The notes under the pieces are model-generated. The model worked only from the letters and a program-made list of their open reading frames with translations. It did not search any database and was not told where the DNA came from. This document shows, piece after piece, positions 4,678 to 51,163 of a stretch of 64,000 nucleotides of DNA. Source of the DNA: a virus. Lineage: Duplodnaviria > Caudoviricetes. The stretch lies in the IMG/VR virus record IMGVR_UViG_3300007513_000003; one strand, 5' to 3'. Position 1 is the first letter of the stretch, and every line of letters begins with the position of its first letter. A program made the translations under genes and the position numbers.

Positions 4678-5016
4678 TTATTTTTCGCTTGGTTTGTGGG
4701 TCTTATAAGAATTTTCGTCTTTCACCAACGCCAAAATTAATTGATATTTTTCCCAGGCTTCTTGTAATGCTGGGTGTTTATCACGCAATCGTTGTTCATC
4801 AAAGTGTTGTTTACCTATATTCAATAAATCATCGTGAGATAGCCAACGTCCATGCTCTTTTGTTATTGGTGGTTCGTCGTCTGTTGGGACAAGTACTTCA
4901 GTAGTAGATCCCATGGGCACTCTTCTGGTGATAGTTCTCCCATTATCGGGAGTTTCATAGATATATTTTTCTTGTGTTTCTGATCGACGAAAGAGTGCCA
5001 CATGGAGCCCTACCAA
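4678..5016 (-). CDS. hypothetical protein
   Basis: 112-aa ORF co-oriented with neighbours. Confidence 0.6.
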   Translation of the reverse strand: MVGLHVALFRRSETQEKYIYETPDNGRTITRRVPMGSTTEVLVPTDDEPPITKEHGRWLSHDDLLNIGKQHFDEQRLRDKHPALQEAWEKYQLILALVKDENSYKTHKPSEK

Positions 5017-5022
5017 TTCTAA

Positions 5023-5619
5023 TTAGAATGAGACGTTTACATTAACGCCTGCTACAGACTCACTAGTTTCCCAATCACTGTCTAATGGCATTTCCCAGTA
5101 AGGTCTAATAGCAAAAGTTGGGGTCATAGCAATACTCCAGCCTACGCCTATAGTGGATCCTAGGAATGCGTCGGCCTCTTCCCAATCCCACCATAATCTT
5201 CCATATGCATCAATATCATATAAAGCAATGCGGGCCAAAACATCTGTATCCAATGCACTTTCATCAATGTTCCAATTTACTCTTGGAACAATGTTTAAAA
5301 TACTTAATTGCATACCTAAACCAGCACCAACTACATAATCTTTATCATCCGCATATTCGGCCCATGAACTCGCACTTAACGTGCCATTACCAATTCCGGC
5401 CGTAACTGAAAAACCAATATCAGTGTCACTATCAGAATAAGCAGAAAGCCTGTCATTACCGATTCTAAATTCATCCTTATCTGAATAGTTAGCACCTGAT
5501 TGGTCATAACTAACAAACCAGTCTGTTGCGCTAATACGAACGCTACTTTTTGATTCGGCTGCATTTGCTGTACTAAATGCAAAAAACGTTGCCATAATGG
5601 CGTACATCATATTTCTCAT
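5023..5619 (-). CDS. exported protein, probable outer-membrane beta-barrel
   Basis: Signal peptide ending TANA-A; amphipathic aromatic-rich strands; C-terminal VNVSF; SD GGAG. Confidence 0.55.
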   Translation of the reverse strand: MRNMMYAIMATFFAFSTANAAESKSSVRISATDWFVSYDQSGANYSDKDEFRIGNDRLSAYSDSDTDIGFSVTAGIGNGTLSASSWAEYADDKDYVVGAGLGMQLSILNIVPRVNWNIDESALDTDVLARIALYDIDAYGRLWWDWEEADAFLGSTIGVGWSIAMTPTFAIRPYWEMPLDSDWETSESVAGVNVNVSF

Positions 5620-5710
5620 TAATATCTCCTTGTGTGAAATTTACATCTGGGCCTACTAATATATAGTCAAACATTAATATGTTAACCTAGAAACTGATTT
5701 AAGAAAAATA

Positions 5711-7780
5711 TTAACCAGTGCGTTTTGTGATCATTTCAGTGATATTAGCAGGGCACGGTGCGTAGTGACTAAACTCCATACTAAACTGACCACGGCCGCT
5801 CGTCATACCACGCAAGTCGCCAATATAGCCAAACATTTCACCAATTGGTGCTTCTGCCCAAATGCGTACCTTTTGTCCACTAACTTCTTGATTGCTAATC
5901 ATGCCGCGGCGTCTGTTAATGTCGCCAATAACGTCACCAACTTTATCCTCTGGAGCAATTACGTCAAGTTTCATGACAGGCTCTAGTAATTGTGGTCCTG
6001 CTTTAGGCATGGTTTGTCTAAAGCCACCTCGAGCCGCTAATTCAAACGCAATAGCACTTGAGTCAACTGCGTGTGAAGAACCGTCTGTTAATGTCACTTT
6101 AAAGTCTAACAACGGATAACCTGCTACAATGCCGTTATTAGCAGACTCTCTAAAACCTTTTTCAACAGCAGGCCAAAACTCTCTTGGCACATTACCACCG
6201 ACAACTTTTGATTCAAACTCAAAGCCGCCGCCTGATGGCAATGGCTCTATAGTATATTCAATATCACCAAATTGGCCAGAACCACCTGATTGCTTTTTAT
6301 GAACAAATTTGTCTTCCACTGTTTGTGTAATAGTTTCTCTGTATGCTACTTGTGGTTTACCAATACTTACTTCAATGCCATGGGTTCTTTTAAGAATGTC
6401 GCACTTAATGTCTAAGTGTAGTTCGCCCATACCCTTAAGAATAGTTTGCCCACTTTCTTGATCTGTTTCAACATGGAAGGACGGATCTTCAGCGACCATT
6501 TTACCAATAGCAGTTCCTAACTTATCCATGTCACCTTGTGTCTTTGGTTCAACAGCAATACTAATAACCGGGGCAGGGAATACCATTGGCTCTAGTACGG
6601 CGGGTTTATTTTTATCACACAGTGTATGACCTGTTTGTACAGTTTTCATACCAAGCAATGCAATAATATCGCCTGCTTGTGCAGAGTCCTTTTCTTCTCT
6701 ATTGTCGGCATGCATTTCTACAATACGGCCAACACGTTCGGACTTGCCTGTGCTACTGTTATAAATTGTATCACCTTTGTTAAGTTTGCCAGAGTAAATG
6801 CGTGTAAATGTCAATGCACCATACTTGTCGTCCATAATCTTAAACGCAAGTGCTCTTAGTGGTCTGTCATCATCAACAATAGCATGTTCACCTGTTTCAT
6901 TGCCTTCTAAGTCTACTTCTGGCTGTGGATCAACCTCAGTAGGATTAGGCAAATAATCAACCACGGCACTCAATACATTTTGTACGCCTTTATTTTTAAA
7001 TGAACTACCACAGAATGTTGGGAAGAAATCACAATTAATTGTACCCTTGCGAATACACTTTTTAAGATCTTCTTCGCTAATGCTGTCAGGATCCTCCATC
7101 CACTGCATCATTACATCGTCGTCTTGCTCTACAACTTGCTCTACCATTAGATCATAATATTCTTTGGCCTTGTCTGCCAAGTCTGCAGGAATGTCGCTAA
7201 TAGTGTAAGAAGTAGGATCTGCTGAATTTGACCAGGCCCATGCTTTTTGCGTAAGAATGTCTACAATGCCTACAAAATCATCTTCAGCACCAATTGGAAT
7301 AGCCATAATAACTGGTACTGCGTTTAAGCGATCTTTAATTTGCTCTACTACACGATAGAAATCTGCACCAACTCTATCCATTTTGTTAACGTAAATAACA
7401 CGGGCAACTTCACTGTCATTAGCATAACGCCAGTTTGTTTCGGATTGTGGTTCTACGCCTCCTACCGCGCAAAAAACACCAACGCCACCGTCTAATACTT
7501 TCAATGAGCGGTATACTTCAATTGTAAAGTCAACGTGTCCTGGTGTGTCAATAATGTTAAACTGGTGGTCATCCCAAAAGCATGTTGTAGCGGCTGACTG
7601 AATAGTAATACCGCGTTCCTGCTCTTGCTCCATAAAATCTGTAGTAGCGGCGCCGTCATGTACTTCGCCTATCTTATGGATTTTACCTGTTAGTTTTAAA
7701 ATGCGCTCTGTTGTTGTAGTTTTACCTGCATCAACGTGAGCGAAAATTCCTATGTTTCTATACTTTTGTAGATCTGACAT
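5711..7780 (-). CDS. fusA: translation elongation factor G, full length (689 aa)
   Basis: [15 protein letters not shown] (G1), RGITI (G2), DTPGHVDF (G3), NKMD (G4), [30 protein letters not shown]. Confidence 0.97.
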
Positions 7781-7807
7781 TCTTATTGCTCCAGCAAAAA
7801 TTTCTTA

Positions 7808-7854
7808 TATTTATAAGCAATAAGTATTGTACACTATTATTATGGTAATGTCAA
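7808..7854 (-). promoter_or_regulatory. tandem sigma70 promoter and T4-type late promoter for fusA
   Basis: TTGACA-N17-TACAAT (7826-7854) and TATAAATA (7808-7815). Confidence 0.7.
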
Positions 7855-7858
7855 ATAA

Positions 7859-9493
7859 TTAGAAACCCCACCAATCACGTACTCCGGGATTAAATGACCC
7901 GCTGGTTGTTCCTGTTATTTTCTCAACTTGCCCATCGCTGTTAGGCACGGGAGTAGAACTGAAATATTTATACTTTATCCATTCTTTACATTTATGACCT
8001 CCAACAAAAATTTCTTGTTCATTATAAGCATCTAATTCTACTTTATATCCCCAGATATAAGCAATATAGTTTAGCACGTCTACAGTAGATTCGTTTGCTA
8101 ATTCTCTACCGCTTTTACCTCTGTATAAATGTAACAATAATGTTCTTTTATCATCATGATCAAAGTCTCTTACTTGTATATCTGGAATGCGATAGTTATA
8201 GTCATATTGTCTTGCTAATTCTTTGCGTATGCTCTTGTAACCAGCGTTGTTATGGATTGCTTTTACTTGATAATGTGGATCTTGCTTGCGGTCGCCAAGT
8301 TGGAACAATCTAAAATCACGTATAACTTTTGGAGATAAAAACTGTAGTATAAAACTCTCGTCCCTATAATTAGCAACGATGTCTAATGTAATCTCTTTCC
8401 AATTACCGCCAGCAACATCAGGAAACCATTCTTTATCTTCTTTTGTTGGCTCATCGCACATACGTTTAATGTCTTGAAAAATAGCAAAACCTAATGCATA
8501 TGGATTTATGCCACCATAATATGGTTTATCAAATGTAAGTTGGTTTAAAACGTTTGTGTGTAGTTTTAAAAACTCTAGCATACTTGCGTCACAAATCAAA
8601 CCTTTTTCATGTAAACGATTCATTGTATAATAATGCACAAAGCAAGCATATCCTTCGTTCATCACTTTTGTTTGTCCTTGCGGATAAAAATATTGTGCTA
8701 TCTTACGCACAATACGACATAATTCGCGTTGCCAATCTGTTAAATTAGGCGCGTTTTTTTCAAGGAAATATATAATGTTTTCTTCTGGTTTATCCAAATA
8801 AACATATTTTCTGTCTGTTTTCTTCTTTTCTTCCTTTTTACGTTTAATTACTGTTGTGTCCCATAACTCATTAACATGTTTGCGTAAGTATTCTGCCCTT
8901 TCACCCGCTTTCTCTGCCTCTGCATACGAATTAAGTTTTACTGGACGCTTATATTTGTTAATACCGTAATTACGAATAGAGTGTAATGCATCTAAAAATA
9001 GTTCTACTTCGTCTAATCCATATTTTTCTTCACACTTCTTAACAAAGTTTTTAGCAAATACAAGATAATCAATAATTGCTTCTGCGTTTGTCCATGTTTT
9101 AAACAAGTAGTTATTTTTAAAGAAATGGTTGTGGCCAAACGCGGCGTGAGCAATAACTAATGCTTGCGTGGTCATTGTATTCTCTTCCATGAGATAGTTT
9201 ATGCATGGATTACTATTAATAACGAGTTCGTATGCTAAACTAGTTCTACCTTTTCTGTATTGATTTTCATAATGTGACCATGCCTTACCATTGCTCCAAT
9301 GGTTATATGATAAGGGCATACCAATACTTGCATATGCATCTAACATTTGCTCAAACGTTACAACTTCAAGTTGGTTCGTGTAAGTATCGCAACCAAGTTC
9401 ATTAACTGCAATATCTTCGCAAGCATCGTAGATGTTACTTACAAGTTCAAAACTCCAATCATCTTGTTGTGTGAATAATAGTTTAGTCATCAC
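7859..9493 (-). CDS. spoVR: SpoVR/YcgB family protein
   Basis: MPLSYNHWSNG, LAYELVINSNPC, HAAFGHNHFFKNN, TKVMNEGYA, YRDESFI.QFLSP. Confidence 0.93.
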   Translation of the reverse strand: MMTKLLFTQQDDWSFELVSNIYDACEDIAVNELGCDTYTNQLEVVTFEQMLDAYASIGMPLSYNHWSNGKAWSHYENQYRKGRTSLAYELVINSNPCINYLMEENTMTTQALVIAHAAFGHNHFFKNNYLFKTWTNAEAIIDYLVFAKNFVKKCEEKYGLDEVELFLDALHSIRNYGINKYKRPVKLNSYAEAEKAGERAEYLRKHVNELWDTTVIKRKKEEKKKTDRKYVYLDKPEENIIYFLEKNAPNLTDWQRELCRIVRKIAQYFYPQGQTKVMNEGYACFVHYYTMNRLHEKGLICDASMLEFLKLHTNVLNQLTFDKPYYGGINPYALGFAIFQDIKRMCDEPTKEDKEWFPDVAGGNWKEITLDIVANYRDESFILQFLSPKVIRDFRLFQLGDRKQDPHYQVKAIHNNAGYKSIRKELARQYDYNYRIPDIQVRDFDHDDKRTLLLHLYRGKSGRELANESTVDVLNYIAYIWGYKVELDAYNEQEIFVGGHKCKEWIKYKYFSSTPVPNSDGQVEKITGTTSGSFNPGVRDWWGF

Positions 9494-10829
9494 TTTTATC
9501 CTTTGGTGTAAAAAACCTTCTAAAAACTGGATATATATCTTTGCTTTGATGAACTCTACCTAATTGTATATTCGACCATTCTTGTGATAACATATAATAT
9601 CTCTTTTCCATACCAGCGCCTGCTACATATTTCAAATCAGCATGTGTCTGACCTGCATTAGGAACAATGCATAAGAATGTAAAATATTGGCAAATAGGTA
9701 AAAGATCGTTGCGTAAAACTTCTGCTACTTTATCATTGTCTGTTGTAAAATTATCACCATCACTTGCCTGGCTAATATAAATGTTCCAGTGTTCTAAATC
9801 ATATCGCTTCTTAATAATTTCATGTGTTAATTCTAATGCTGAACTTACTACTGTGCCGCCACTTTCTTTGCTATTAAAGAATTCATCTTCTGTACATTCC
9901 TTAGCAACAGTATGGTGGCGTATAAACACAATGTCTACCAAGTCATACTTCATATTTAAAAACATATGTAGTAAAATAAAAAAGCGTTTTGCTAAATTCT
10001 TTTCACGTTCTTGCATTGATATTGATACATCTAAAATACAAAACATTACAGCCGCATTTTTAGGCTTTGGTACTTTAGAGAAGTTGTTAAACTTTAGATC
10101 AATTGGATCAATAAACGAGATAGCATTGTATCTTGCTCGTATGCGTTTTATCTCTTCCTCAATCTCTTGCAAACGTAGCCATTCTTGTGTTCTATGATCT
10201 TTGCCTGGTGGCAATGTAGCAAAAAACTCAAGTATTTTATCACGCTCTTCTAGTAGTTCGCGTAATTTTCTTCCCTTAGGCTTTTTAAGAGCCAAACGTC
10301 TGCCAATACTGCGTATCATGCTCTGTTCTAAATTTAGATTGTTTGGTGAGCCTTCATTTACATAACCTGCTCTTTCAACACTAAACTCTTCAATACTTTT
10401 CTTTTGTTTCTCTATTAAATCAGGAAGTTCTAAGTCTTCAAATAATATATCTAAAAATTCATCTTTGTTTATAGAGAATACAAAATCGTCTTCGCCATAT
10501 GCATCATCTGAACCTTCAGATCCGCCGCCGCCTCCTTGGCCACCCTGGGGTGGTTTGCGTATTTTATCGCCAGGAACATATTCTTTATTGCCGGGTAAGA
10601 CATAATCTTTTTCACCTGATTTAGGATCGTATTGGAATTGTGGTTCTTTAATACTTTTAGCAGGAACTTTGACGCGGCTGCCAGACTTTAGATCCTTGAT
10701 AGATCTGTTTTTAATAGTTTCGTCTAAGCTTTCCTTAATATACTTCTTTGACCGCTCAATGAAGCGTTGTCTATTGGAAAGATTCTTTCCCTTAGGATTT
10801 GAACGCCTGTCAATAATATGCTTGGCCAT
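9483..10829 (-). CDS. yeaH: YeaH/YhbH family vWA-like protein
   Basis: IIDRR.NPKGKNLSNRQRF, Gly-rich linker, DVSISM (MIDAS-like), ESGGTVVSSAL, SDGDN. Confidence 0.93.
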   Translation of the reverse strand: MAKHIIDRRSNPKGKNLSNRQRFIERSKKYIKESLDETIKNRSIKDLKSGSRVKVPAKSIKEPQFQYDPKSGEKDYVLPGNKEYVPGDKIRKPPQGGQGGGGGSEGSDDAYGEDDFVFSINKDEFLDILFEDLELPDLIEKQKKSIEEFSVERAGYVNEGSPNNLNLEQSMIRSIGRRLALKKPKGRKLRELLEERDKILEFFATLPPGKDHRTQEWLRLQEIEEEIKRIRARYNAISFIDPIDLKFNNFSKVPKPKNAAVMFCILDVSISMQEREKNLAKRFFILLHMFLNMKYDLVDIVFIRHHTVAKECTEDEFFNSKESGGTVVSSALELTHEIIKKRYDLEHWNIYISQASDGDNFTTDNDKVAEVLRNDLLPICQYFTFLCIVPNAGQTHADLKYVAGAGMEKRYYMLSQEWSNIQLGRVHQSKDIYPVFRRFFTPKDKSDD

Positions 10830-10838
10830 GGTAAACCC

Positions 10839-12779
10839 TTAACTTGACTTCTGGGTTCTCATGTACCATTCAACAAGTCTACGAACTTGCCTATCAGTAT
10901 AACCTTTCTCTTCCATACGAGCAACAAAGTCATTGTGCTTTTGTTGGTCATCTTTGTTTTGCTTATTACCAAAGGAAATAATAGGTAGTAGTTCTTCTGT
11001 GGACGCAAACATTTTCTTTTCAATAATCTCGCGTAGTTTTTCATAACTCGACCACTTTGGATTCTTACCTTTGTTTTTTGCTTTTGCTCTCAATACAAAG
11101 TTGACTACTTCGCTACGGAAGTCTTTTGGATTAGCGATACCGGCTGGTTTCTCAATCTTCTCTAACTCCTCGTTTAGTACTTCGCGGCTAAACAAGTTGC
11201 CTGTGTCAGGATCTTTAAAGTCAATCTCTTGAATCCAGTGATCAGCGTATTCAATATAACGATCAAACAAGTTTTGTCCATAATCACTATAACTTTCTAA
11301 ATATGCTTTTTGTATTTCATTACCAATAAAGTCAGCATACTTTGGAGCCAACCATTCTTTAATAAAGTTTGTGAGCGTTTTTTCATTTTCCTCACCAAAC
11401 TGATCGCGTCTAATTGCTTGCTCTAGTACAAACATCAAATGTACTGGATCAGCCGCAATCTCGTTTGTGTCAAAGTTAAACACTTGTGACAGTATCTTAA
11501 ACGCAAAACGTGTTGATGAGCCAGACATGCCTTCGTCTACTCCCGCAACGTCTTTATATTCTTGTAGTGACTTTGCTTGTGGATCAGTGTCTTTTAAATT
11601 CTTGCCGTTATACACTTGCATTTTGGAAAACAAATTACTGTTTTCATGCTCACGCAGTCTACTTAAAATACTATACTGCGATAACATTTCAAGTGTTTGC
11701 GGGGCACATGGATGCTGTGCTAGTCCACTTGAGTCTAGCATCTTTTCGTAAATACTAATCTCTTCATCAATACGTAAGCAGTAAGGAACCTTAACAACAT
11801 ACACACGATCTAGGAACGCTTCGTTGTTTTTGTTGTTCTTAAATGACTGCCATTCTGATTCGTTACTATGTGCTAAAATTGTTCCACTAAACGGAATAGC
11901 ACTAATACCTTCTGTACCCATATAGTTGCCTTCCTGCGTAGCAGTTAGCAATGGGTGTAATACTTTGATTGGTGCTTTAAACATTTCAACAAATTCCATA
12001 AGGCCTTGGTTGCCTTTACATAATGCACCACTAAATGCGTATGAGTCTGGATCGTGTTGTGAGAAGTACTCAAGTTGACGAATATCTGTCTTACCAACCA
12101 ATGAACTAATGTCTTGGTTGTTTTCGTCACCTGGCTCTGTTTTTACTACAGCAATCTGTTTTAGTTTACTTGGCTGTAATTTTACTACTGTAAATTTAGT
12201 AATGTCACCATCAAATTCATCCAAGCGTTTAATTGCCCATGGGCTTAGTAAGCCAGTTAGGTAACGCTTTGATATTTTATATTCTTTCTCAATTTGCTCA
12301 CCATATTTCTCAGGAGAGAACAGAGACAACGGACTTTCAAAAACAGGGCTAATTACATCGCCTGCTTTTAGTACATAAATTGGATGTATTTCCATTAATT
12401 CTTTTAAACGTTCAGCAAGACTCGACTTGCCGCCGCCCACTGGGCCCAACAAATATAATATTTGTTTACGTTCTTCTAAGCCTTGTGCGGCATGTTTAAA
12501 AAATCCAACAATTCTTTCTACGGTATCTTCTAGTCCGTAAAAGTCTTTAAATGCTGGATATACTCGTAATGTTCTGTTCAGGAAGATGCGTGACAACCGT
12601 GGATCTTCCGAAGTATCTATATGCTCTGGGTCCCCAATGGCAGCTAACATTCGTTCTGCTGATGTAGCATATGCGAGTGGGTCCTTCTTACATAGATTTA
12701 GATACTCTTCAAGTGTGAACTCTTGCTCTTTATATGATTGGTAATCTGCAGAGAACTCCTTTAATAGTTTGCTTGCCAT
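10839..12779 (-). CDS. prkA: PrkA/YeaG family AAA+ Ser/Thr kinase
   Basis: Walker A LLGPVGGGKSS, EPGDENNQDIS, EFVEMFKAPIKVLHPLLTATQE, HSNESEW. Confidence 0.95.
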   Translation of the reverse strand: MASKLLKEFSADYQSYKEQEFTLEEYLNLCKKDPLAYATSAERMLAAIGDPEHIDTSEDPRLSRIFLNRTLRVYPAFKDFYGLEDTVERIVGFFKHAAQGLEERKQILYLLGPVGGGKSSLAERLKELMEIHPIYVLKAGDVISPVFESPLSLFSPEKYGEQIEKEYKISKRYLTGLLSPWAIKRLDEFDGDITKFTVVKLQPSKLKQIAVVKTEPGDENNQDISSLVGKTDIRQLEYFSQHDPDSYAFSGALCKGNQGLMEFVEMFKAPIKVLHPLLTATQEGNYMGTEGISAIPFSGTILAHSNESEWQSFKNNKNNEAFLDRVYVVKVPYCLRIDEEISIYEKMLDSSGLAQHPCAPQTLEMLSQYSILSRLREHENSNLFSKMQVYNGKNLKDTDPQAKSLQEYKDVAGVDEGMSGSSTRFAFKILSQVFNFDTNEIAADPVHLMFVLEQAIRRDQFGEENEKTLTNFIKEWLAPKYADFIGNEIQKAYLESYSDYGQNLFDRYIEYADHWIQEIDFKDPDTGNLFSREVLNEELEKIEKPAGIANPKDFRSEVVNFVLRAKAKNKGKNPKWSSYEKLREIIEKKMFASTEELLPIISFGNKQNKDDQQKHNDFVARMEEKGYTDRQVRRLVEWYMRTQKSS

Positions 12780-25388: not shown

Positions 25389-25417
25389 ATTATATATTAC
25401 ATTACGGTCATTGTCAA
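25389..25417 (-). promoter_or_regulatory. sigma70-type promoter
   Basis: TTGACA-N17-TATAAT. Confidence 0.8.
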
Positions 25418-29577: not shown

Positions 29578-29589
29578 ACACATATTTAG

Positions 29590-29847
29590 TGGGGGCGACT
29601 TTGTTAAGAAGGTGTCGCCCCCGAAACCCCCTACGCGACCGCTAATTAGGCGGCTAATGCGTAATCGTAATAATCGTCATTTGCAATTATATAGTTTGCT
29701 GTTTTTTAATATGGAACTGCTCCCATATGTCGTCCATTTATCCTCTTCACCCTGTCGAAACTGTGTCACCCCCGTAAAAAATTTGGTGGAGGTGCCGGGC
29801 ACTGCCCCCGGGTCCAGAATGCGTACTTTCAACTTCATACGACAATC
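29590..29847 (-). ncRNA. ssrA: two-piece (circularly permuted) tmRNA; tag ANDDYYDYALAA
   Basis: Minus strand: acceptor piece ...GGACCCGGGGGCAGTGCCCGGCACCTCCACCA (ends 29784), 10-nt intervening segment, coding piece GGGGGTGACACAGTTTCGAC (starts 29773); 7-bp acceptor stem with G3:U70; tag ORF 29646-29684; late box 29853-29860. Confidence 0.93.
29591..29622 (-). terminator. GC-rich hairpin at the 3' end of the tmRNA coding piece
   Basis: GGGGGCGAC...GTCGCCCCC. Confidence 0.65.
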
Positions 29848-29872
29848 AAAATTATTTATATAGGTGTAGAAG

Positions 29873-29902
29873 AATAAAGGAATACCTGAGCATTCCTTTA
29901 TT
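29873..29902. terminator. 11-bp perfect hairpin between rpmG and ssrA
   Basis: AATAAAGGAAT-N8-ATTCCTTTATT. Confidence 0.65.
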
Positions 29903-33869: not shown

Positions 33870-33898
33870 TTGACATATTAAAGCAAAGATGCTATAAT
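33870..33898 (+). promoter_or_regulatory. sigma70-type promoter of hsp20
   Basis: TTGACA-N17-TATAAT. Confidence 0.8.
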
Positions 33899-37492: not shown

Positions 37493-38338
37493 TTAATTAT
37501 TATACATTTCCATAGCACGAATAAAACGTGTCATACCAATGCCACCGCCTACTCTTGGAAAGAAGTCCATTGCTAAAAAGTCTTCCAACTCTTTTTCAAC
37601 TCTTTCTCTACCAAACGTATCAAATAGTATATTAGCATAACCGCCGTCACTAATAGTATGGAACATATGTTTCATTTGTTCTTTATCTGTAGCACGTTCT
37701 GCTGATCCAATTGTTTCTTGTCCAGCAATAATAACATCAATCTTTGCCGCAGTTTCGCCATCGTCGTTTTGTTTCATGTTCCAAAATGGACTTGTGTAGT
37801 TTGGAAAGTTTTTAATCATTGCTACACGGCCATTAAAGTTTTGGCACATTTTTTCTTCATGCTCGTGTTCTAATTCTTTAACGCCGTAAATATCACACCA
37901 TTCTAAATAATCTTTAGCAACAATGTTTTCGCCATCGGACCATGTTAAGTAGTCCATAAGTTCGCGTTCCATCTTCTCTAAATCTAAAATAGTTCCTGGA
38001 AACTCAAACTCAAACATTGGAAATATTAGTTCATGTCTACCAGCTACCGGATTTGGCTCTTGCCTATAGGAGGTGGAAATACAAAAAAACCCCGGAACGT
38101 CGGGGCGTGTTAGTAATTCATGTTCGAGCCACATTTGGCCCGTTTGTGGCAGGGGCCATAGTTGCCCTGCGTAATTATAGGTCGCTATTGTTGTTGGATC
38201 TTCGCATGCCGCTAGTATGCTTAATCTATTTTGTGTGTGTACTTCTAAGAATCCTTTAGCCATAAAAAAAGACCTTAATAGGTCTGCGGCTTGTGTAAAG
38301 TGTTGTGGATTGATAAGTTGTGTCATTGTTTTCTCCAT
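37493..38338 (-). CDS. class II aminoacyl-tRNA synthetase catalytic-domain protein (Asn/Asp/Lys-like, no anticodon domain)
   Basis: Motif 2 SYRQEP...RH..IFPMFEFE, ETIGSAER, motif 3 PRVGGGIGMTRF; only 281 aa. Confidence 0.85.
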   Translation of the reverse strand: MEKTMTQLINPQHFTQAADLLRSFFMAKGFLEVHTQNRLSILAACEDPTTIATYNYAGQLWPLPQTGQMWLEHELLTRPDVPGFFCISTSYRQEPNPVAGRHELIFPMFEFEFPGTILDLEKMERELMDYLTWSDGENIVAKDYLEWCDIYGVKELEHEHEEKMCQNFNGRVAMIKNFPNYTSPFWNMKQNDDGETAAKIDVIIAGQETIGSAERATDKEQMKHMFHTISDGGYANILFDTFGRERVEKELEDFLAMDFFPRVGGGIGMTRFIRAMEMYNN

Positions 38339-51134: not shown

Positions 51135-51163
51135 ATTATAATTGATTTAAATTTAGATGTCAA
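51135..51163 (-). promoter_or_regulatory. sigma70-type promoter
   Basis: TTGACA-N17-TATAAT. Confidence 0.8.

Follow-up and report, generated by a model that had tools for sequence, protein, structure and literature searches.

The 64,000-nucleotide (nt) stretch of viral DNA analysed here (IMG/VR record IMGVR_UViG_3300007513_000003, hereafter the window) carries an intact gene for translation elongation factor G (EF-G). We consider it probable that its product is a functional EF-G, an ordinary translocase that would add elongation capacity on the ribosomes of the host both early and late in infection. The gene and the signals predicted in front of it are the following:

5711..7780, minus strand: EF-G coding sequence, ATG start, 689 amino acids (aa), with domain G including the G' insert and domains II, III, IV and V
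7789..7792, minus strand: putative Shine-Dalgarno sequence GGAG, 8 nt before the ATG; GGAGCA is invariant in four aligned relatives
7808..7815, minus strand: TATAAATA, a candidate T4-type late-promoter box 27 nt before the ATG, recognised by motif and conservation
7826..7854, minus strand: predicted sigma70-type promoter TTGACA-N17-TACAAT (TTGACA at 7854-7849, 17-nt spacer, TACAAT at 7831-7826)

Pfam models covered the protein from end to end (GTP_EFTU at residues 6-279 including the G' insert, followed by D2, EFG_III, EFG_IV and EFG_C). The NCBIfam EF-G equivalog model TIGR00484 (cutoff 659.4) matched it with 952.7 bits, over profile positions 6-688 of 691. The top matches in the PDB were bacterial EF-G chains at about 760-820 bits (E = 2e-245), compared to only 374 bits for 1WDT, the EF-G2 of T. 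thermophilus. When aligned with E. coli FusA, to which it is 53% identical, the phage protein was found to keep the P-loop, RGITI (G2), DTPGH with the catalytic His, NKMD and G5, as well as both loop tips of domain IV, SGGSGQ and SHAVDSS. Models of other factors scored below their cutoffs: 473.7 vs. 890 for the EF-G2 model NF009377, 468.7 vs. 1000 for NF058620 (Bacteroides EF-G2) and 376 vs. 775 for the Tet(M)/Tet(O) protection model NF012153, with the RF3, LepA and BipA models far under theirs. Neither the window nor the viral loci described below contained an rpsL, rpsG or tuf gene. On every sequence criterion tried, the phage protein is an EF-G (EFG I) that stands outside the str-operon fusA context, the EFG II/EF-G2 group and the Tet protection proteins, and the sequence evidence for an EF-G fold is overwhelming. 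The initial annotation had described an intact 689-aa EF-G standing alone, and both points held: all five domains and all catalytic motifs are there, and the str-operon companions are missing from the window.

The closest cellular EF-Gs were 72-75% identical to the phage protein over the full length. They came from Gammaproteobacteria (Methylococcaceae, Granulosicoccaceae, Pseudomonadales and Thiotrichales), Verrucomicrobiota (Opitutales and Akkermansiaceae) and filamentous Cyanobacteria. We compared the two copies in five complete or large bacterial genomes, each with two EF-Gs above the TIGR00484 cutoff. The str-operon copy, beside rpsL, rpsG and tuf, scored 1130-1210 bits with TIGR00484 and was 50-55% identical to the phage EF-G, whereas the stand-alone copy, without ribosomal neighbours, scored 971-1002 bits and was 72-74% identical. 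The 80 closest bacterial loci all lacked rpsL, rpsG and tuf within 4 kb, and no other neighbour was conserved there; the str context did appear in the controls (L090-L094 and E. coli). The non-str type was patchily distributed, occurring in 31 of the 151 gammaproteobacterial genomes sampled and in 5 of the 61 cyanobacterial ones. It is the group that Margus et al. 2011 (PMC3150367) reported as non-str EFG I genes with a history of lateral acquisition in gamma-proteobacteria and, in a single case, in a cyanobacterium.

We built maximum-likelihood trees from 139 rows (LG+G4) and from 63 rows with a site-heterogeneous model (LG+C20+F+G4). In both, a long branch with full support, of about 0.7 substitutions/site, divided the non-str clade (100) from the str-operon EF-Gs. 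All viral-contig sequences, together with about 39 metagenomic clusters, formed one phage clade inside the non-str clade, supported by a Shimodaira-Hasegawa-like approximate likelihood-ratio test (SH-aLRT) of 98 with 139 rows and by ultrafast bootstrap (UFBoot)/SH-aLRT values of 100/99 with 63 rows. The sampled bacterial members were its sister group (94; 89/77). The likeness to second-copy EF-Gs of marine proteobacteria and cyanobacteria, noted in the initial annotation, is confirmed by the identities of 72-75% to stand-alone vs. 50-55% to str copies and by the clade support of 100. Because identity within the phage clade drops to 77%, the simplest reading of these sequences is a single old acquisition, after which the gene diversified as the phages did. 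The bacterial sample consists of the 80 most similar species and does not allow the precise donor to be named.

The ratio of nonsynonymous to synonymous substitution rates (dN/dS) between pairs of phage EF-Gs was 0.05-0.14, with dS ranging from 0.4 to above 2 (saturation), and 452 of the 689 columns were at least 95% conserved within the phage clade. The phage EF-G is under strong purifying selection. Six positions were fixed differently in the phage clade and its bacterial sister group (S184, Y209, W227, P231, D419 and Q445). The first four of these cluster in the G' subdomain, the surface of EF-G that meets the L7/L12 stalk, and W227 stands where all sampled bacterial EF-Gs, of both kinds, have an invariant Tyr.

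A pattern scan of IMG/VR yielded nine contigs (L001-L009) of up to 322 kb with EF-Gs 78-93% identical to the window copy. On all nine, genes for PrkA, DUF444/YeaH and SpoVR lay upstream of EF-G and the same small genes lay downstream. A look for uL11, Smr or Csp genes next to EF-G in L009 and L001 found none. The upstream neighbours in the window are:

7859-9493, minus strand: SpoVR
9483-10829, minus strand: DUF444/YeaH
10839-12779, minus strand: PrkA (NF011999, 1195 bits)

Two relatives, G006 (322,647 bp, 90% complete by CheckV) and G007 (158 kb), carry a T4 gp23-type major capsid gene (E about 1e-97), and G006 also encodes a gp55-like late sigma factor (phrog_12791, E = 2e-74). PHROG matches in the window itself included baseplate, tail-lysozyme, ribonucleotide reductase and phage radical-SAM proteins. 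Distant members of the clade (P0037 and P0029) lie near SpoVR on compact, one-strand, phage-like contigs with purine-synthesis, radical-SAM, DNA ligase and DNA methylase genes. An identical EF-G protein was present on 13 contigs, the longest of 224 kb, and DNA of the window was present in seawater metagenomes of several studies. The EF-G is truly phage-borne, as its synteny in diverged viral contigs with gp23 and gp55-type genes demonstrates.

An artefactual origin, either through chimeric assembly with host DNA or as a recently captured, functionless and drifting gene, has next to no probability. The GC content of the gene (about 40%, compared to a window mean of about 35%) could be taken to suggest it, but PrkA and other conserved genes share the raised value. 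Many independent assemblies, made in several studies, agreed on the position of the gene, the phage clade is deep and monophyletic, and the open reading frame (ORF) was intact in all copies at the low dN/dS given above; these results on synteny and selection refute both forms of the idea. A chimeric host insert, which the initial annotation had named as a finding that would overturn it, is excluded by the same gene context across viral contigs.

When positions 5000-11000 were compared with GenBank phages by megablast, no match was obtained, which indicates that this collection holds no close cultured relative. The top phage matches in tblastn, at 50-53% identity (fusA2 of Acinetobacter phage MD-2021a and Salmonella, Listeria and Staphylococcus 'phage' records), were rejected as bacterial str-type EF-Gs filed as phage. 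A separate scan of IMG/VR for the PrkA trio, in which 80 loci (L121-L200) were kept of 122 matches, showed PrkA-YeaH(DUF444)-SpoVR to be widespread in large-phage contigs of up to 578 kb, most of them without EF-G nearby. Among the 80 viral contigs examined, EF-G within 10 kb of the trio was confined to the nine contigs already known.

The sigma70-like site in front of EF-G has 11 of 12 consensus matches and was the top-scoring site within the 8.5 kb around it. Perfect TTGACA-N16-18-TANAAT sites occurred four times in the window against 0.42 expected, a number reached by none of 100 shuffles, and all four sit just upstream of gene starts. We believe that these sites, that of EF-G included, probably mark a set of genes read by the host polymerase (early genes). 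The other perfect sites, of the form TTGACA-N16-18-TATAAT, are:

25389-25417, minus strand: sigma70-type site before a gene start
33870-33898, plus strand: sigma70-type site before a gene start
51135-51163, minus strand: sigma70-type site before a gene start

As a word, TATAAATA was not enriched in the window (18 copies vs. 12.2 expected). Its placement was far from random, with 16 of the 18 copies at most 60 nt upstream of a same-strand ORF start, where 7.8% of positions qualify (binomial p ~3e-16, an upper bound on the significance because intergenic DNA is AT-rich). One more copy precedes the transfer-messenger RNA (tmRNA) gene of the window. Some boxes (minus-strand box starts 1075, 2063, 42840, 49007, 53070 and 57918) end 4-6 nt before an ORF start, which leaves no room for a leader. 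Unlike these, the EF-G box leaves 27 nt that hold the GGAG.

In four diverged relatives the -35 element TTGACA was invariant, the -10 element read TAnAAT and the 17-nt spacing was unchanged, and the late box was kept as (T/A)ATAAATA in L007, L001/L008 and L002/3/4/9. The motifs, their spacing and the GGAG were thus constant, and the bases between them varied. From motif, position and conservation we infer that the EF-G gene would be read from an early and a late promoter. Both upstream motifs of the initial annotation are present, with the GGAG in addition, and its proposal of expression throughout infection fits their conservation in the relatives.

Contigs from the RNA libraries of three metatranscriptome studies span the EF-G ORF, from 5709 or 5774 to 7785 or 7786, at ~93% identity and are therefore derived from a sister strain. 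They fit transcription of EF-G in the sea, with DNA carry-over as another possible source. The contigs leave 7813-10220 (SpoVR and YeaH) uncovered. This is uninformative on separate transcription, because the contigs come from a strain of ~93% identity and those genes diverge faster. Two contig ends at 7785/7786, with no loose end, were considered as a 5' end and rejected, as the DNA run is without cover there. Two joints inside EF-G (7002>7359 and 7129>7347) were likewise set aside; their short sides of 31 and 23 nt most likely reflect conserved EF-G segments of other organisms.

These results suggest the following course of events. An ancestor of this marine T4-like jumbo phage lineage would have acquired EF-G once, from a pool of stand-alone EFG I paralogues moving laterally among Gammaproteobacteria, Verrucomicrobiota and Cyanobacteria, and the gene would then have branched into its present variants along with the phages, under strong purifying selection. 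All residues for ribosome-dependent GTP hydrolysis and tRNA-mRNA translocation are kept in the protein, and its predicted role is that of an ordinary translocase working on the ribosomes of the host, with EF-Tu and ribosome recycling factor (RRF) supplied by the host as well. Early in infection, unmodified host RNA polymerase would read the sigma70-type promoter; later, the T4-type late promoter would be read via the gp55-like sigma factor. Elongation capacity would in this way be added from the start of the infection to its end, and the host is probably a slow-growing oligotroph poor in translation factors. G006, at 90% completeness, had no gene for RRF, SmpB or EF-Tu, as the sole match to an EF-Tu model fell on the G domain of its EF-G; the ribosomes and partner factors that the phage EF-G uses must therefore be those of the host. 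Translocation is broadly cross-compatible among bacteria, whereas the cooperation of EF-G with RRF is species-specific. Extra translocase capacity would for this reason be the simplest role.

Several points weigh against this picture. Five further jumbo-phage records have the PrkA trio and no EF-G at all, and for two of the five completeness is 90% or more; any benefit would therefore be lineage-specific. The promoter pair was missing in L005, L006, L115 and L117, where EF-G stands directly behind another ORF; the dual design therefore belongs to the sub-lineage of the window and not to the whole clade. The RNA contigs give neither strand nor 5' ends and may include carried-over DNA. We found no published function for the bacterial non-str clade, nor a biochemical or genetic test of it or of any phage EF-G. 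Finally, a limiting supply of EF-G in the host is an assumption.

We also considered a specialised role, be it in RRF-dependent recycling, in tmRNA-mediated rescue with the phage tmRNA, or in low-GTP starvation translation with PrkA-YeaH-SpoVR, and judge it distinctly unlikely. EF-G paralogues with split roles are known, as in the case of P. aeruginosa EF-G1A/EF-G1B (PMC3832671), and the way in which the EF-G paralogues of Pseudomonas, Borrelia and Bacteroides share out their tasks offers a parallel. The window also encodes a permuted tmRNA of the alpha type, which hints at an alphaproteobacterial host:

29588-29882, minus strand: circularly permuted tmRNA, alphaproteobacterial type (Rfam RF04321, 121.8 bits; RF01849, 83.7 bits), tag peptide by ARAGORN ANDDYYDYALAA
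29853-29860: TATAAATA box at the tmRNA gene

The GTPase and the domain IV translocation residues of the phage protein are, however, all canonical, unlike those of characterised EFG II-type specialised paralogues, and the protein fell short of the EF-G2 models (473 vs. 890; 469 vs. 1000). A dedicated function in recycling, as had been put forward for the gene, or in rescue is unsupported, given the lack of RRF and SmpB in the 90%-complete G006, and an EF-G of foreign derivation would be a poor recycling specialist with host RRF because cooperation between the two is species-specific. One bacterial locus bears on the starvation variant. In a Thiohalomonadales metagenome-assembled genome (L031:3991-10054), a stand-alone EF-G of the same type immediately precedes prkA-yeaH-spoVR, with all genes on one strand; this is the phage gene set in another order. 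This adjacency was seen at 1 of 80 bacterial loci, which had no conserved context, and may be coincidence; we do not count it as a significant link on its own.

A replacement factor is an unlikely alternative to the added translocase capacity that we prefer. Host EF-G would be inactivated by a defence toxin or by the phage itself, and the phage copy would escape and sustain translation. In the closest relatives EF-G lies directly downstream of the PrkA-family kinase/AAA+ module, and, according to a passage in PMC6375957 that cites the observation, the T7 kinase phosphorylates EF-G. Four of the six fixed phage differences fall in G', including the Tyr-to-Trp change at an otherwise invariant position, and the early promoter would place the factor in the cell before shut-off. 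The adjacency to PrkA is loose, though, with intervening genes in L001, L005, L006 and L115; EF-G is missing from most of the phages that have the PrkA trio; and no EF-G-targeting function was identified in the window. Six substitutions is also a small number, and no part of EF-G varies more than G'. In a more elaborate form, the PrkA-family module or another phage factor would disable or down-tune host EF-G, and the escaping phage copy would serve as a privileged translocase. We regard such a takeover pair as highly unlikely. The evidence for the replacement and specialist roles consists of gene neighbourhood and the G' substitutions, and we hold either role as an outside possibility.

The redox-sensitive cysteines speak against replacement as well. 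The cysteines of the inactivating disulfide in E. coli EF-G, C114/C266 (PMC10212517), correspond to C104/C257 of the phage protein, which are invariant in the clade. An oxidation-proof variant is therefore not indicated, and the suggestion in the initial annotation that the phage copy makes up for oxidised host EF-G is not favoured. The redox cysteines of EF-G are C105/C242 in Synechocystis numbering (PMC6800327). Phage Cys104/Cys242 were considered as an equivalent of this pair, and we rely on the alignment with E. coli C114/C266 instead. We believe that the match in numbering is probably coincidental, because a member of the clade occurs in only 5 of 61 cyanobacterial genomes.

Among known systems, the phage EF-G most resembles the non-str EFG I paralogues annotated as 'elongation factor G 2 / fusA2' in Methylococcus, Methylobacter, Granulosicoccus and Moorena, which stand alone and are 72-75% identical to it. 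Shared features are the lack of the E. coli-type 7-aa insert after switch I, the clade-typical Cys67, Cys242 and Cys676, and TIGR00484 scores of about 950-1000 bits. The EF-G2s of Vibrio and Shewanella presumably belong to this clade, too, given the EF-G1/EF-G2 identities of 53-56% in the table of Palmer et al. Unlike the bacterial members, the phage copies form a clade of their own with the six fixed substitutions, phage-type promoters and residence in a virus genome. With the str-operon FusA (E. coli b3340; T. thermophilus EF-G) the phage protein shares the five-domain architecture and identical catalytic motifs, but it lacks the rpsL-rpsG-fusA-tuf context and is separated from that group by the branch of about 0.7 substitutions/site. 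The upstream region may have its counterpart in the T4 late promoters, which depend on gp55, gp33 and gp45: the TATAAATA box is perfect and a gp55-type sigma factor exists in the lineage (in the relative G006). Here the candidate late box is combined with a predicted consensus sigma70 promoter 11 nt upstream.

Huge phages with genes for EF-G, EF-Tu and EF-Ts, proposed to sustain translation efficiency, were described by Al-Shayeb et al. 2020 (Nature 578:425, PMC7162821). Their EF-Gs (LR756501-LR756508) are likewise full-length and encoded in very large genomes, beside tmRNA, ribosomal protein and aminoacyl-tRNA-synthetase-like genes. They are 45-49% identical to the window EF-G and branch outside the non-str clade, which indicates separate acquisitions. 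The huge phages live in other habitats, with Bacteroidetes as their predicted hosts, whereas the lineage of the window phage is marine and T4-like and has an alpha-type tmRNA. Both the occurrence of EF-G genes in phages and the idea that they sustain translation have thus been in print since 2020, and the concepts are unchanged. What is new here is the donor family, the single origin of the phage clade, the purifying selection, the conserved pair of predicted early and late promoters, and the presence in RNA libraries.

Elongation factors belong to the core machinery of cells and are known from only a few viral lineages. Abundant marine giant phages have kept an EF-G for a long time under strong constraint, with its own predicted early and late promoters and beside a tmRNA. 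This makes the lineage a good test system for whether a virus gains from a translocase of its own. It also offers a route to the role of the widespread, unstudied second-copy EF-G of marine bacteria.

Two further genes of the window were noted:

5023-5619, minus strand: ORF of 198 aa just downstream of EF-G, with a signal-peptide-like N terminus and a C terminus ending in VNVNVSF
37493-38338, minus strand: class II aminoacyl-tRNA-synthetase catalytic core of 281 aa (Pfam tRNA-synt_2), without an anticodon domain

The 198-aa product had no Pfam, PHROG or NCBIfam match, and tblastx showed weak conservation in relatives; its termini make it look like a small outer-membrane beta-barrel. The synthetase core came nowhere near any of the cutoffs for AsnRS, AspRS and AsnA. 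With the 'tRNA ligase' of the Prochlorococcus phages P-SSM2, P-SSM7 and P-SSM5 it shares 64% identity, and huge phages carry it, too.

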